A stretch of 64,000 nucleotides of DNA. Source: Eubacterium sp. GTDB lineage: Bacteria > Bacillota > Clostridia > Lachnospirales > Lachnospiraceae. A model generated the notes under the pieces. The model searched no databases, was not told where the DNA came from, and saw only the letters and a program-made list of their open reading frames with translations. The position numbers were made by a program, and so were the translations under genes. The stretch is taken from positions 1,529,120 through 1,593,119 of the forward strand of contig JBKTKJ010000001.1 of assembly GCA_047242425.1 (NCBI GenBank), given 5' to 3'. Below are positions 58,515 to 64,000 of the stretch, piece after piece. Numbering within the stretch: the stretch's first letter is position 1; every line of letters begins with the position of its first letter.

Positions 58515-59423
58515 TTAATTCCTTTTAAAATAAAGCATTTTTTCCGGGTTTATTCTGCCCCATCCCTGTCTGTTTTTATCCATTTTCATATCAATTGCAG
58601 TATTCTTTATTATTTTTTTACATTCCACATTGGAAAGTTCAGGATATTGCGACAGTAAAAGGCACAACGTGCCCGAAACTATGGGAGTTGCCATAGATGT
58701 TCCGCTTTTTGTAACGTATGCATAATTTTTTTTCCATAAACTGCAGCAACTATAGATCATATTGGCAGGTGCCACAACATCCGGCTTTTGTATGCATTCA
58801 GAGGTAGGACCTCTCCCCGAGTAATTCATTGTAATCTTACCATTGACAATCATCTTTATGTTATCATTCAATGCACCTACGGTAATTACTTTTTTGCTGT
58901 CTCCCGGTGTGGAGATAGTATTAATTCCCGGTCCGTTATTTCCTGCCGCAGCAACAACCACATATCCCATATCCCATAAAAGTTCAACAGCTTCCACCAG
59001 CCTTTTATTCTGTTCTCCTTCATGTCCAAAAGTACCAAAAGAAATATTTACAACTTTAATGTCCATATATCTGCCATTATCTATAATCCACCATATTCCA
59101 TCTATTACATGATCCTCTTTTCCTATTCCCTTATGATCCAGAACTTTTATAGATACTATATTGGAACGGGGCGCTACCCCTCTAAACATTCCTCCGGATA
59201 AAACTCCGTTCCCTGCAATAATCCCTGCCACATGGGTTCCATGACCTTCATCATCATAATTTTTATTTTTATTATTTACAAAATCCTTAAAACCAATAAT
59301 CCTATCATCAAAATCCGGATGTTCTGAAATTCCAGAATCCAAAACTGCCACAGTTACTCCCTGACCCATGATTCCTCTTTGGTGCAAATTATTAATTCCA
59401 AGCATCTGTCTTACTTTTCTCAT
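58515..59423 (-). CDS. S8 family (subtilisin-like) serine peptidase without signal peptide
   Basis: ORF track 58515..59456 (TTG). ATG at 59421-59423 (MRKVRQMLGI) has AAGGAA 7 nt upstream. Catalytic triad contexts VAVLDSG, HGTHVAG, GTSMATP. Size and lack of a leader resemble Bacillus intracellular serine protease. Confidence 0.85.
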   Translation of the reverse strand: MRKVRQMLGINNLHQRGIMGQGVTVAVLDSGISEHPDFDDRIIGFKDFVNNKNKNYDDEGHGTHVAGIIAGNGVLSGGMFRGVAPRSNIVSIKVLDHKGIGKEDHVIDGIWWIIDNGRYMDIKVVNISFGTFGHEGEQNKRLVEAVELLWDMGYVVVAAAGNNGPGINTISTPGDSKKVITVGALNDNIKMIVNGKITMNYSGRGPTSECIQKPDVVAPANMIYSCCSLWKKNYAYVTKSGTSMATPIVSGTLCLLLSQYPELSNVECKKIIKNTAIDMKMDKNRQGWGRINPEKMLYFKRN

Positions 59424-59555
59424 TATGCAATTCCTTGTATTCATACGTTTATACAATAATATATGACAATTTTTATTTCAGTTTAAAACAATTTGTAAAC
59501 AAGACAGGCTTTGCCACATATTATTTAGTGTAATCAAAATTTAGGGAGAATTATC

Positions 59556-59795
59556 ATGAGTGATTTAGCAGCAACAAACTGTGGATGCGGTTGTGAAGGA
59601 GGAAACAATAACTGTTTATTCCTTATCCTTATTCTCTTATTCTGTGGCGGCTGTGGCTGTGGTAACAATAACGGATGCGGCTTCGGTGGCGGAAATGACT
59701 GCTGTAGCATAATCTGGATTATTTTACTTCTCAGCTGCTGTGGAAACGGCAATAATGGCATCTTTGGTAATAACAGTTGCGGTTGCGGCTGCTAA
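59556..59795 (+). CDS. 79-aa Cys/Gly/Asn-rich protein with two hydrophobic helices (unassigned; YjcZ-like architecture)
   Basis: GGGAG SD 7 nt upstream of the ATG. MSDLAATNCGCGCEGGNNNC LFLILILLF CGGCGCGNNNGCGFGGGNDCC SIIWIILLLS CCGNGNNGIFGNNSCGCGC. Confidence 0.6.
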   Translation: MSDLAATNCGCGCEGGNNNCLFLILILLFCGGCGCGNNNGCGFGGGNDCCSIIWIILLLSCCGNGNNGIFGNNSCGCGC

Positions 59796-59982
59796 TTGAT
59801 GACGACAATCTATACGAATACGATTTTCAGTGTTTGTTAACCGGTATTCTTAAAGAGTATGAAGTAAGTAATGTGAACTTATTCATTTTACTTGTCATCA
59901 TAAGCATTTAAGTTTATGAATTTGCATAAGTTTAATAAGCAGCCAAAAGTATGATTTCTAGTTGATGGGGGATTACAGCCTT

Positions 59983-60351
59983 ATGGAAAATGAACAGTTA
60001 AAGCAAACAAAATTCGATTCCATGGTTACAAACAAGAATATGCAGTTAGCCAAGGCTGTAATTCCTTACATCGACAACAGAATCGGAAATTATCTTGGTA
60101 TGTATATAAAATTTAAAGAATTGCAGAATGCTGCCCGGATCAATTCAAATGTTGCTGTTGCTGCCATGAATGCTGACAAGCATAAGGAAAATATTGGGAT
60201 GGAAAGCATGTTTGAGGATATTAAAGATTTCCTCAGCGATGACGAAAGAGAGACCATTGATACCATTATGACAATGATGGAAATGATGAATATGGATGAT
60301 GATGCCAAACAGGATTTTATGGGAAGTTACATGAATATGTTTGGTATGTAA
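59983..60351 (+). CDS. hypothetical small helical protein with Met-rich C-terminal tail
   Basis: ORF track 59962..60351 (TTG). ATG at 59983 (MENEQLKQTK) follows GGGGGA by 10 nt. No family recognised. Confidence 0.55.
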   Translation: MENEQLKQTKFDSMVTNKNMQLAKAVIPYIDNRIGNYLGMYIKFKELQNAARINSNVAVAAMNADKHKENIGMESMFEDIKDFLSDDERETIDTIMTMMEMMNMDDDAKQDFMGSYMNMFGM

Positions 60352-60380
60352 TGAATCAAATTGTAATAAAAGGAGGTAAA

Positions 60381-60674
60381 ATGATTAATAACAAATGGAT
60401 GGATGACCCTGTTCTCTCAGGTGTTTCAAGTGAAAAAATGGAGATTCTGACCAAAATACTGGACAGTTCAAATGGTATGGAGCCCAAACAAATGCTTACA
60501 TACTTTATTCAGGAGTCCAACAAAGCTTCAAAAAATGGTATTAATTTCACCGATGCCGAAACTGATGCTATTTTAAATGTTTTAAAGACCGATATGACTC
60601 CTGAAGAAATCAGGAAAATTGATACGATTAAACGAATGGTCAATATGTTGTCAAAGAAAAAAGGGCGTATATAA
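60381..60674 (+). CDS. hypothetical small helical protein (shares IDTI motif with preceding gene)
   Basis: ORF track 60351..60674. ATG at 60381 (MINNKWMDDP) follows AAGGAGGT closely. Confidence 0.55.
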   Translation: MINNKWMDDPVLSGVSSEKMEILTKILDSSNGMEPKQMLTYFIQESNKASKNGINFTDAETDAILNVLKTDMTPEEIRKIDTIKRMVNMLSKKKGRI

Positions 60675-60690
60675 CGCCCTTTCCTTTTAC
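60661..60690. terminator. bidirectional terminator
   Basis: aagggcgt-atata-acgccctt stem overlapping the stop at 60672-60674, followed by TCCTTTT. Convergent with the next gene. Confidence 0.65.
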
Positions 60691-61797
60691 TTATCTCTGT
60701 CCTCCAATCGCTTTCACAGTCTCCTTTAATTCTTCTTCCGATTTACAATAAGTCCACTTATACATATCCCGTTCTGAATTTTTGATAAAAAGTTTTCCGT
60801 TTTTGTATATTAAATTTTTGGATGTATATCCATAATATTTTTTTAATTTTTTAACCAGATCCTTTCCTCCCTTAAAACTATACGCATCCTTCTTTTTGGA
60901 ATTCTTCTTATATTGCATCACAACAGTATATTCTGCAGCCATTCCTCCCGGGCTGCAATTTGTTACCAACGCACATCCCTTATACAATCTGCCTAATTTT
61001 ATTTTCTGAACCACATATCTTTCAAGAAAACATTCATAATGAAATGTCTGTCCGGTTTTTTCGTTCACTAAATCTATGTAAATAATATGATTATTTTTAG
61101 ACTTTAAAGAAAAAGTTCTTTTCTTTGTTATGTTTTTATTTATATATGAATTTTTTGTGTCATGATATACTGTTATTTTTTTTGCTTTCCATCCCTTTGC
61201 AAGAAACAACTCTAATTTGACCTTTTTTCTTACATTGGTATAAATGGAACCACAAACAGAATGTTTCTGGGATTTATTTAACTTTTTTCCTCCAATCTCT
61301 AATTTTTTAATAGGAGTACCCTTTAATACTGTTAACTGTTTGGATACTGTAACTGAATTTCCCTGATCATCGGAAATAGTACAGCTAATAACTGTCCTGC
61401 CGCCTTTTTTTACTTGAAAAATATTTCGGCGTTCCAAAACAGGATAGGACGGTACCGAACAATCACCTGTAGATTCATAATAATTAACATCCTTATATTT
61501 TGCTATATTTTTATCACTTGACTTCCATTCGTAATGAAGTTTTTCGTATTCTTTATCCTCTTGTACTTTTCCGCCTGCATTTTCCTTGTTGGGATATCCT
61601 TCCTTTGACAGATAAAACTCTGCCTCTTGCTCAAATTCATAGATATATTCGGGCCCTTCTATTGTTATTCCATTTAACAATGGGTTATTGTTTGTTTCTC
61701 CAGCGGACACACTCAATGAATGCACCAGTATTCCCAAAACAGACATCACCAAAAAGCAAATTAAAAATTTTGATAATACCCCAAATAGTTTCTTCAT
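60691..61797 (-). CDS. hypothetical secreted/anchored Lys-rich protein
   Basis: ORF track 60691..61857. ATG at 61795-61797 (MKKLFGVLSKFLICFLVMSVLGILVHSLSVSAGE) has AGGAG upstream. No family recognised. Confidence 0.5.
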   Translation of the reverse strand: MKKLFGVLSKFLICFLVMSVLGILVHSLSVSAGETNNNPLLNGITIEGPEYIYEFEQEAEFYLSKEGYPNKENAGGKVQEDKEYEKLHYEWKSSDKNIAKYKDVNYYESTGDCSVPSYPVLERRNIFQVKKGGRTVISCTISDDQGNSVTVSKQLTVLKGTPIKKLEIGGKKLNKSQKHSVCGSIYTNVRKKVKLELFLAKGWKAKKITVYHDTKNSYINKNITKKRTFSLKSKNNHIIYIDLVNEKTGQTFHYECFLERYVVQKIKLGRLYKGCALVTNCSPGGMAAEYTVVMQYKKNSKKKDAYSFKGGKDLVKKLKKYYGYTSKNLIYKNGKLFIKNSERDMYKWTYCKSEEELKETVKAIGGQR

Positions 61798-61944: not shown

Positions 61945-62247
61945 TCATAATCCGTGTACCATTTGAATGATTACGTTTAATACATGCGTTTCATTTTTTC
62001 CTAAACATTTACCTCCTTCGTTTTTATTTCCCCAAATATCAATATGATTAATTGGATTACCCGCACAATAAGAATACAGATTCCATGTGCTATAATTATC
62101 CTGTTCTCCCTTATAACTGTCCTGTGTCAGAAAAGTTATGTCATTCGTACTGCAATACATAGCATCCAAATAATAATGTCCTGTCAGTTCATCAGAACCA
62201 CGCCTAAAAGACCTGGCTCTGATTTTCTGATATTTGCTATTTCTCAC
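61945..62247 (-). pseudogene. orphan, degenerate RHS/YD core-end plus truncated toxin tip
   Basis: ...DELTGHYYLDAMYCSTNDITFLTQDSYKGEQDNYSTWNLYSYCAGNPINHIDIWGN parallels the end of the full RHS gene. The DPxGH cleavage motif is degraded to DIWGN and only 26 aa follow. Confidence 0.65.
62054..62194. repeat. RHS core-end repeat, copy in orphan fragment
   Basis: 141 bp aligning without gaps to 63774-63914. I counted 17 mismatches by hand (about 88% identity). Confidence 0.8.
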
Positions 62248-62287: not shown

Positions 62288-63022
62288 TCATTCTTTTTCA
62301 TTTATAACATACTTTCCCATCCTTTTCATCTGGAACTTACATAAAAATCCTGCTACGATAAAAATAACTAGAAAAAACCATGCTGCATAACAACCATATT
62401 CCATATTCATCATCGGAATAAAAAAGTCTTCCCATTCTCCCCCCATGATAAAAGGTGCATATGAAGAAGATCCCAAAATACCAACAAGTTGTATTGCACC
62501 TATAAATGAGCATAAGAAAAAATAAATTTCATCATAATATTTTACCCTTGTCATAATAATTCCACAAAAAATCCCAACTATCACTGAAACAATAACTGCA
62601 AAATCCTTCGCTAGATAATCTATCAACAAGTCCGGTCTATAATTTCCCATTAGTTCGTAAAAGTCAACACCTATCCAGCTAATCAATGCATTTATTAAAA
62701 TATAGCTTACTTGCATGAAAAAGGTAAATGAAATAATAAATATATTTCCTTTTTTTAATTTTCCAAGGAACAAAAAAACTAGGATTCCTATCACTGAACC
62801 AATACATATGGAAATCCAGTGTTCCCATATTATATAACCAACCATTCCTCCAAATAAAGTTCCAAAATATGCCCCGATTATATTTGCAACAAACTTTCGT
62901 GAAAATTTGTATGCAAAAAATCCAATCATAATTCCAATAATTATATTTATTATATTAAATATTTCTGGAATGTGTATTGTGTAATATAAATACAATAGTA
63001 TTTCTTTCCCATCAATCATCAT
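62288..63022 (-). CDS. polytopic membrane protein, candidate immunity protein for the RHS toxin
   Basis: 244 aa, about 7-8 hydrophobic helices. Starts 27 nt after the RHS stop with a GGGGAA SD. The call is positional only. Confidence 0.5.
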   Translation of the reverse strand: MMIDGKEILLYLYYTIHIPEIFNIINIIIGIMIGFFAYKFSRKFVANIIGAYFGTLFGGMVGYIIWEHWISICIGSVIGILVFLFLGKLKKGNIFIISFTFFMQVSYILINALISWIGVDFYELMGNYRPDLLIDYLAKDFAVIVSVIVGIFCGIIMTRVKYYDEIYFFLCSFIGAIQLVGILGSSSYAPFIMGGEWEDFFIPMMNMEYGCYAAWFFLVIFIVAGFLCKFQMKRMGKYVINEKE

Positions 63023-63049: not shown

Positions 63050-64000
63050 TCAAGAAACCGGTAATGTATAATATGGTCCGCTCGGGTTATACACTACAAG
63101 ATTTTCACCAGTAGGATAGTTTATTGCCGGTATTGGCATTCCAACATTATGCGTCTTATAATAAATTTTACTTTCTATCCAAGTTCCTCTTTGACGGATA
63201 TTTGCATAATTGGTCTTACCTGCAAAAGCGTATGTATAACCATCAAGTCTTTTATTCCACTTCTTTGCAAAATTTTTATTTTTTTTATTTGGAGTTGCTG
63301 TATTACACGAAAAAAATGTGGTTTTAGGCATACAAAATGAACTCTTATTAATCTTTTTAATATCTTTTGCTTTCAAAGTTAATTTTTTTTCATTGCTTGT
63401 TCCATCATACCCAAACGCTATTTTTCCTGGAAATCCATGCGCATAAACTGTAAAACTTGTTATTAAATCATCGCTTTCCCTCTCCTTATTAAGATATTTT
63501 ATAAGACTTTTTTTTGAATTAAAATATTTTATTTTGATTTTTTTACTAATCTTTTTCGCTTGTTTTTTAAAACTTTTCTTATCATCTTTTGTCCATCCCT
63601 GATTGGCTATTAACCAAGTGACCTTTTCCGTTGTATCGGATATATCTTTTAAATTTTTTAGTGCAGTTTCTATAAACTCATAATAAAAACCACCACTATC
63701 TTTTTTCGTTTTACTGTATACTCCGCCTGACACTACTATTTTTTCGTGCCCACTTGGATCAATATAAGCTATCGGATTACCTTCACAATACGCATACAGA
63801 TTCCATGTACTATAATTATCCTGTTTTCCTCTATAACTGTCCTGTGTCAGGAAAGTTATGTCATTCGTACTGTAATACCTTGCATTCAAATAATAACGTT
63901 CTGTCAATTCATCATAAACACCTGATGTATAACAAATCTCATTATAAAATTCTTGATTGCCTAACTTCTGTGTTTCTCCATAATCATCATATTTATATGC
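63050..64000 (-). CDS. RHS/YD-repeat polymorphic toxin, C-terminal part (N-terminus beyond window)
   Basis: The frame stays open from 64000 (AYKYDDYGETQKLGNQEFYNEICYTSGVYDELTERYYLNARYY...). The ORF-track M at 63907 is an internal TTG. Core end NPIAYIDPSGHE is followed by a 231-aa variable C-terminal domain. Confidence 0.85.
   Translation of the reverse strand, partial: AYKYDDYGETQKLGNQEFYNEICYTSGVYDELTERYYLNARYYSTNDITFLTQDSYRGKQDNYSTWNLYAYCEGNPIAYIDPSGHEKIVVSGGVYSKTKKDSGGFYYEFIETALKNLKDISDTTEKVTWLIANQGWTKDDKKSFKKQAKKISKKIKIKYFNSKKSLIKYLNKERESDDLITSFTVYAHGFPGKIAFGYDGTSNEKKLTLKAKDIKKINKSSFCMPKTTFFSCNTATPNKKNKNFAKKWNKRLDGYTYAFAGKTNYANIRQRGTWIESKIYYKTHNVGMPIPAINYPTGENLVVYNPSGPYYTLPVS
63774..63914. 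repeat. RHS core-end repeat, copy in the full-length gene
   Basis: See 62054-62194. Confidence 0.8.

Follow-up and report, generated by a model that had tools for sequence, protein, structure and literature searches.

The cysteine-rich gene and its protein family

The stretch analysed, a 64-kb window (64,000 nucleotides) of the Eubacterium sp. contig JBKTKJ010000001.1, carries on its plus strand, at 59556–59795, a small gene for a protein composed largely of Cys, Gly and Asn. The coding sequence starts with ATG, ends with TAA and specifies 79 aa, comprising 19 Gly, 15 Cys and 13 Asn (47/79 residues, 59.5%). The remaining residues are mostly Leu (9), Ile (7) and Phe (4), which make up two hydrophobic cores, and there is no Lys or Arg. 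The translation, the residue counts and the two hydrophobic blocks given in a preliminary description of this DNA were reproduced exactly. The protein opens with the motif MSDLAATNCG (first ten residues, 59556–59585). Core 1, LFLILILLF, spans residues 21–29 (59616–59642) and is followed by CGGCGCG; core 2, IIWIILLL, spans residues 52–59 (59709–59732) and is followed by SCCG. The Shine-Dalgarno (SD) sequence reported earlier, GGGAG, was present at 59544–59548, 7 nt 5' of the ATG. The G+C content of the open reading frame (ORF) is 44% compared to 35% for the window, and a six-frame check of the whole window revealed no second stretch of similar Cys/Gly/Asn content.

A protein search with the window sequence returned 333 relatives at E ≤ 1, and when a profile was run against 1.84 billion cluster representatives (50% identity level), 432 clusters matched at E ≤ 1e-3, 122 of them at E ≤ 1e-10. 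Matches longer than ~110 aa were accounted for by junk C-terminal read-through or by a start called 5' of the true start. In addition, one genome per GTDB species was scanned with the pattern MSDL[AT]ATNC; this confirmed at least 219 stretches as relatives, from which 80 loci were retained. The locus-level counts given below refer to these 80 loci or to the 82–84 distinct sequences or upstream regions. An intact ORF of 66–104 aa, beginning with MSDL[A/T]ATNC, was present in all 80 kept loci, and the gene was single-copy at every locus examined. In an alignment of 82 sequences, M1, S2, D3, L4, A6, T7, N8 and C9 were invariant, whereas codons 2–10 varied synonymously: Ala6 was encoded by GCA in 41 and GCT in 41, Cys9 by TGT in 52 and TGC in 31, and Gly10 by GGA, GGC or GGT. 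This synonymous variation indicates selection on the protein rather than on the DNA. The earlier view that the frame is a real gene and not low-complexity noise was borne out by the 80/80 intact ORFs, the codon variation and the recurrence of the two-core layout; it is the reading frame, not the DNA alone, that is conserved in relatives.

The hosts were nearly all Lachnospiraceae, including Blautia, Roseburia, Agathobacter, Mediterraneibacter/[Ruminococcus] torques ATCC 27756, Faecalimonas umbilicata, Acetatifactor, Hungatella, Lacrimispora, Anaerosporobacter, Fusicatenibacter and Velocimicrobium porci. The exceptions by label were Acetivibrio ethanolgignens and one metagenome-assembled genome (MAG) labelled Oscillospiraceae, the gene of which was close to an Acetatifactor copy.

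The exact window protein was not found in a collection of 15 billion proteins by exact-sequence look-up, so the gene was evidently left uncalled in the annotation of its own genome. The copies in [Ruminococcus] torques ATCC 27756 (locus L011) and Faecalimonas umbilicata DSM 103426 (L026) were likewise missing from the collection, suggesting that gene callers often overlook it. This lack of annotation, in its own genome and in several isolate genomes, together with the low complexity of the sequence, could mean that the ORF is non-functional, either arising incidentally from a simple GC-rich repeat or being the reverse of a true antisense product. Antisense frame −2 was stop-free in 74/83 members, and in the window it takes the form of a Pro/Gln-rich ORF of 75 aa at 59534–59761 (−) that overlaps the Cys-rich gene. 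The antisense frame had no conserved start, SD sequence or promoter; its openness is explained by the TGY/GGN/AAY codon composition of the Cys-rich gene, and it was rejected as a second gene. Frames +2 and +3, by comparison, always contained stops. The ATG, the decapeptide with its synonymous changes, the two-core layout and a promoter in the matching orientation (described below) were kept across the 80 loci, and an SD-like motif was found in 81/82. An artefact is effectively excluded: the Cys-rich ORF is a genuine, conserved gene and the founder of a protein family, uncharacterised to date and mostly of Lachnospiraceae.

Exactly two hydrophobic cores of 7–11 residues (mode 8) were found in 82 of 83 distinct versions, and in most members they were followed by CCCG, CCGG or SCCG. 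The general layout is the invariant decapeptide, two Leu/Ile/Trp cores of 8–9 residues and three flexible Cys-Gly-Asn arms with CxC and CC motifs. Across the family the composition was 21.5% Gly, 18.2% Cys, 12.9% Asn, 11.3% Leu and 8% Ile, with essentially no Lys; Lys and Arg together averaged 0.54 per protein and Asp and Glu 3.9. The MSDLAATNCG start, read from the sequence, has no signal-peptide features.

Each core sits in an uncharged segment (median 15 residues, range 11–25). Kyte-Doolittle peaks over 19 residues had medians of 1.68 and 1.76, and both exceeded 1.6 in 38/82 members. For the Cys-rich protein, AlphaFold2 placed helices on the two cores (residues 20–30 and 48–62) and left the arms disordered, at a low-confidence pLDDT (predicted local distance difference test) of 46. 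When the window protein and 82 members were compared to Pfam and NCBIfam by hmmscan at E ≤ 10, the only matches were weak, unrelated ones to transmembrane segments (such as Pmp3 and TatA). All of this would fit a tiny two-pass membrane hairpin, placed in the mother-cell or outer forespore membrane late in sporulation and working like the 'tiny TM' protein YjcZ, the gene of which in B. subtilis is also a member of the sigma-K regulon (PMC517825). However, cores of just 7–11 residues are short for this role, there is practically no Lys or Arg to set a topology, the flanks are acidic or neutral, and a median of 14 Cys per protein would be odd for a simple membrane anchor. Furthermore, none of the 82 members matched the YjcZ models TIGR01732 or PF09680 at E ≤ 10, a threshold at which the composition filters of HMMER could still mask very weak matches. 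A membrane hairpin is the main alternative to the reading preferred below, possible but in our view less likely than not.

The number of Cys residues per protein ranged from 8 to 21 (median 14), with CxC (292) and CC (191) the commonest spacings. The preliminary description had proposed that such motifs serve in metal-thiolate clusters or disulfide cross-links, and judged from the sequence both roles are plausible for the CxC/CC arms. Taken alone, the dominance of CxC and CC in a protein of 18% Cys could indicate a metallothionein-like thiol buffer, with arms that take up Zn, Cu or Fe, or that quench oxidants, and so protect the spores of strict anaerobes, the cores serving merely as a tether; a sporulation-type promoter would suit a protective spore factor of this kind. 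No metallothionein model was matched in Pfam or NCBIfam, however, and the two strongly hydrophobic cores with Trp and Phe are unlike those proteins. Outside the core flanks the Cys positions were not conserved, and no metal-handling genes were conserved nearby. The chance that the protein is primarily a thiol buffer appears slim.

The promoter

The 110 nt 5' of the ATG were aligned from 84 distinct loci, which revealed a near-invariant element, g.aAC-N16/17-CATAt.aT(a). In the window this element lies at 59499–59524 (+) and, as read from the sequence, consists of a −35 AC at 59499–59500, a 16-nt spacer and a −10 CATATTAT at 59517–59524. The pattern AC-N16/17-CATAnnnT was present in 73/84 upstream regions and ended 29–38 nt before the ATG, with one case at 51. 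In 200 shuffles the same pattern occurred in a mean of 2.0 regions and a maximum of 5. As a further background, 501 other ORFs of at least 150 aa from the same loci were inspected; the pattern preceded 15 of these, in 5 cases at the right distance. In a position matrix anchored on CATA, the C, A, T and A and the T at +7 were invariant (83/83), and the −35 was of the AC type in 72 compared to the ATA type in 6.

In C. difficile and B. subtilis, sigma-E and sigma-K share a common −10, for which CATATTAT is the canonical mother-cell form, and differ in the −35, which reads ATA in sigma-E promoters but AC in those of sigma-K (PMC3789822). An AC −35 for sigma-K is also supported by separate work on B. 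subtilis (PMC517825). Based on the match of the AC −35 and the CATAnnnT −10 to this published consensus, the promoter of the Cys-rich gene is by its sequence a textbook sigma-K-type, that is late mother-cell, promoter. From this we infer that the gene is sigma-K dependent.

A second conserved element, TGTAA, was observed just 3' of the −10, around the expected transcription start (59529–59533 in the window, +). Its matrix counts were T 67, G 61, T 70, A 70 and A 81 of 83. The element was absent from the sigma-K-like promoters of the small neighbouring gene described below, and it may be that a regulator binds there or that the start of the transcript is constrained. A SpoIIID site was considered and rejected, as by eye TGTAA did not fit WWRRACAR-Y, which we take to be the SpoIIID consensus. 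A scan of the window for further mother-cell-type promoters gave none that was convincing.

Neighbouring genes

Context look-ups and tblastn showed a recurrent gene order of a divergent S8 peptidase, the Cys-rich gene, orf129 and orf107. In the window, orf129 encodes 122 aa from the ATG at 59983 (59983–60351, +) and orf107 encodes 97 aa from the ATG at 60381 (60381–60674, +). The two products are identical to the NCBI hypothetical proteins ACLRZ9_07165 and ACLRZ9_07170, respectively, of a Eubacterium sp. MAG. With iterated hidden Markov models (HMMs) applied to the ORFs of each locus, an orf129 homologue was found directly downstream and on the same strand in 65/84 loci and an orf107 homologue in 58/84, several of the other loci being truncated. 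The orf129 HMM also matched orf107 (E 1e-12 to 1e-4), indicating that the two are paralogues. For orf107, AlphaFold2 gave a small helical bundle (pLDDT 74), and a fold search with this model found no PDB match at E ≤ 0.001. Homologue searches with orf107 and orf129 returned 'hypothetical protein' entries only.

A sigma-E-type promoter, ATA-N14-16-CATAnnnT, preceded orf129 in 34 of the 65 loci, compared to a shuffle mean of 2.2 and maximum of 8. In the window there was a near-match only, made up of ATT at 59906–59908, 16 nt and CATAAGTT at 59925–59932. An intrinsic-terminator-like hairpin at 60660–60682 (+) closes the cluster and was the sole terminator-like site in 59300–60900; there was none between the Cys-rich gene and orf129.

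In at least 36 loci the interval separating the Cys-rich gene from orf129 held, on the opposite strand, a small gene of ~45–60 aa, with the sequence M..RLIIDGNxVYEIDEEC and a charged (Lys/Arg/Glu) tail, referred to here as the IDGN gene (for example in L011, L013, L066 and L077). It was preceded by sigma-K-type promoters in 20/44 cases (shuffle mean 0.4). In the window, a small related ORF lies instead on the same strand as the Cys-rich gene (59777–59911, +). It has a TTG start, the sequence MRLRLLIDDDNLYEYDFQCLL... and a hydrophobic tail, and overlaps the stop of the Cys-rich gene by 19 nt. Aligned by eye without gaps, 10 of its first 19 residues matched those of the minus-strand protein of L011, and the same-strand form was kept at the protein level in the closest relatives of the window (L019, L023 and L050). 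The IDGN protein, orf129 and orf107 matched no Pfam or NCBIfam family. Taken as a whole, the locus resembles a small islet made up of mother-cell sporulation genes, all of them uncharacterised.

The divergent gene upstream, at 58515–59423 (−), encodes an S8 (subtilisin-family) peptidase of ~302 aa (Pfam Peptidase_S8, E 7e-56) with an N-terminus that is not signal-peptide-like. All of its NCBIfam matches were below cut-off, the best (mycosin) far below. An AC-N15-CATATATTA motif lies upstream of the window copy, and across loci the upstream regions of this peptidase showed no consistent sporulation-type promoter. In 15 loci (the window and 14 fetched ones) the peptidase gene was the immediate, divergent neighbour, and in ~22/84 it lay no more than 3 kb away. 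Given this minority adjacency, it was rejected as an obligate partner and is better described as a frequent neighbour. In L007/L025 (4003–4959) and L028/L029 the gene directly upstream was instead a ~318-aa serine recombinase with Resolvase/Recombinase domains, preceded in L028 and L029 by a sigma-K-like motif. Mother-cell-specific recombinases are known, such as SpoIVCA, of which the recombinase of L028/L029 is reminiscent. In L007 and L025, dapB and dapA were found just downstream.

A protease beside a small protein with an invariant N-terminus could also mark the precursor of a RiPP (ribosomally synthesised and post-translationally modified peptide) or a bacteriocin-like peptide, in which MSDLAATN would be the leader and the S8 protease the processor. 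A radical-SAM/SPASM gene near the Cys-rich gene would fit this scheme, but was confined to the L007/L025 clade, and a RiPP cluster was rejected for that reason. Furthermore, the S8 gene was missing from most loci, and no transporter, immunity gene or modifying enzyme was conserved near the Cys-rich gene. A leader of eight residues would be too short for known RiPP recognition, and the sigma-K-type promoter points to the interior of the mother cell rather than to export. A secreted, processed peptide is highly improbable.

Elsewhere in the window, two minus-strand ORFs at 61945–62247 and 63050–63907 opened with an RHS repeat-associated core motif (E 9e-8 and 5e-11 to TIGR03696, respectively) and differed in their C-terminal parts, with a multi-pass membrane-like ORF in between (62288–63022, −). 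The arrangement is suggestive of orphan polymorphic-toxin tips, perhaps with an immunity gene.

Predicted role and comparison with known systems

The reading that we prefer is that the Cys-rich protein is a late mother-cell protein of the outermost spore layers, which self-associates through its cores and cross-links or binds metal through its CxC/CC arms. From the sequence evidence we judge this about equally likely to be right or wrong. It draws on the precedent of Cys-rich, sigma-K-dependent proteins of the crust and exosporium (CotY/CotZ/ExsY, CdeC/CdeM and CsxA), and is supported by the sigma-K-type promoter at a fixed distance from the ATG and by the conserved neighbours with mother-cell-type promoters. 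The predicted structure of two short helices and disordered arms would suit a matrix protein better than a folded enzyme. Among the hosts, Lacrimispora, Anaerosporobacter and Hungatella are spore-forming genera.

On this reading the protein would pass from the cytoplasm of the mother cell to the surface of the developing spore and take its place as a matrix or surface component of the outer coat or of an exosporium-like layer. Self-association would be driven by the hydrophobic cores, which would also make the surface water-repellent. Once the spore leaves the reducing environment of the mother cell or the gut, the thiols would form intermolecular disulfides; alternatively, they may bind metal. 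The invariant N-terminus may act as a docking or processing motif for a conserved partner. Spore localisation, cross-linking and the role of the N-terminus are proposed here by extension from the sequence features and the precedents.

Several observations weigh against a spore-layer protein. The Kyte-Doolittle peaks of ~1.7 are borderline for membrane insertion, which leaves some probability for a membrane location. The number of Cys residues was even in 45 members and odd in 37, and this mixed parity implies that intramolecular disulfides follow no fixed pattern. Nor do the conserved neighbours have a function known to tie them to the coat. Lastly, sigma-K and sigma-E promoters are separable by the −35 alone, and the consensus applied comes from C. 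difficile and B. subtilis rather than from Lachnospiraceae.

A more specific form of the spore-layer reading, to which we give a small chance, is a Lachnospiraceae-specific 'bacterial chorion/hydrophobin'. The protein, with ~18% Cys and hardly any Lys or Arg, would be added to the spore late, remain reduced as long as the spore is in the anaerobic gut, and form a cross-linked hydrophobic shell only on meeting oxygen outside the host, with the IDGN protein, orf129 and orf107 as assembly partners. If true, such oxygen-triggered hardening of the shell would help strict anaerobes to travel between hosts.

Lachnospiraceae are among the most abundant bacteria of the human gut and many pass between hosts as spores; to our knowledge, almost nothing is known of the make-up of these spores. 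The Cys-rich family is widespread, is often missed by gene callers and, where called, bears a misleading insect name. Since it contains almost no Lys or Arg, the protein would escape trypsin-based spore proteomics, which could be why the family went unnoticed. The gene and its three uncharacterised conserved neighbours offer a testable way into lineage-specific biology of the spore surface, including resistance, hydrophobicity, oxygen tolerance and transmission. A late-sporulation reporter for Lachnospiraceae could also be made from the near-invariant promoter.

As the preliminary description had supposed, no characterised function could be assigned: there was no family match in Pfam or NCBIfam, a search of the PDB with the family profile found no related structure, and no literature on the bacterial family was found. 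At E ≤ 10, no member matched models for chorion, CotY/CotZ/ExsY-type, CdeC/CdeM/CsxA or metallothionein proteins.

The likeness to YjcZ sporulation proteins pointed out earlier held in part. YjcZ proteins have a single short hydrophobic helix within about 50 aa or less. Both kinds of protein are tiny and have a short Leu/Ile/Phe core after a Gly-rich segment, and function is established for neither. B. subtilis yjcZ is in the sigma-K regulon. The Cys-rich gene has a sigma-K-type promoter motif in 73/84 loci, and this motif supports the suggested link to sporulation. Membership of the YjcZ family is not supported, given the lack of any model match. The Cys-rich family has two cores rather than one, 66–104 aa with 18% Cys and 13% Asn, and the MSDLAATNCG start, and is nearly confined to Lachnospiraceae, whereas YjcZ belongs to Bacillaceae; the papers found that mention YjcZ concern Bacillus or E. 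coli. The analogy holds for style and, judged from the promoter motif, for timing, but not for family membership.

High Cys content, the dominance of CxC and CC and Gly-rich unstructured segments are shared with metallothioneins. These, however, lack hydrophobic cores and aromatic residues, in contrast to the Trp/Phe cores and the variable Cys positions of the bacterial family. Many members are named 'chorion class high-cysteine HCB protein 13' by NCBI (for example WP_461817463.1 and MBS7208951.1), a name that in the literature searched occurs only in work on Bombyx mori. CGCGC arms of Cys and Gly occur in both the silkmoth chorion HcB proteins and the bacterial family, and as the arms are disulfide-linked in the moth eggshell, the two compare well in physical terms. 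In the moth the proteins are secreted and contain a conserved central chorion domain, whereas the bacterial proteins have hydrophobic cores and no signal peptide. The name is most likely a compositional misnomer arising from the shared CGCGC repeats. Fungal hydrophobins and Streptomyces chaplins likewise coat spores and render them water-repellent, and they too are small, hydrophobic and contain Cys. The analogy does not go beyond function: both are secreted, with a defined 8-Cys fold in hydrophobins and an amyloid domain in chaplins, and neither is related in sequence to the Cys-rich family.

Functional precedents are CotY/CotZ of B. subtilis, ExsY of B. cereus, CdeC/CdeM of C. difficile and CsxA of C. 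sporogenes, which are Cys-rich, sigma-K-dependent proteins of the outermost spore layers. It is established that these late mother-cell proteins are disulfide cross-linked into the crust or exosporium. They differ from the present family in being larger and in folding or assembling as lattices, and we know of no case among them of Cys-Gly-Asn arms around two short hydrophobic cores. In C. difficile, the genes of the coat and exosporium are under sigma-K control (PMC3789822). Compared to these systems, the Cys-rich proteins make up a new family of an already known functional kind, and their composition is unusually extreme.

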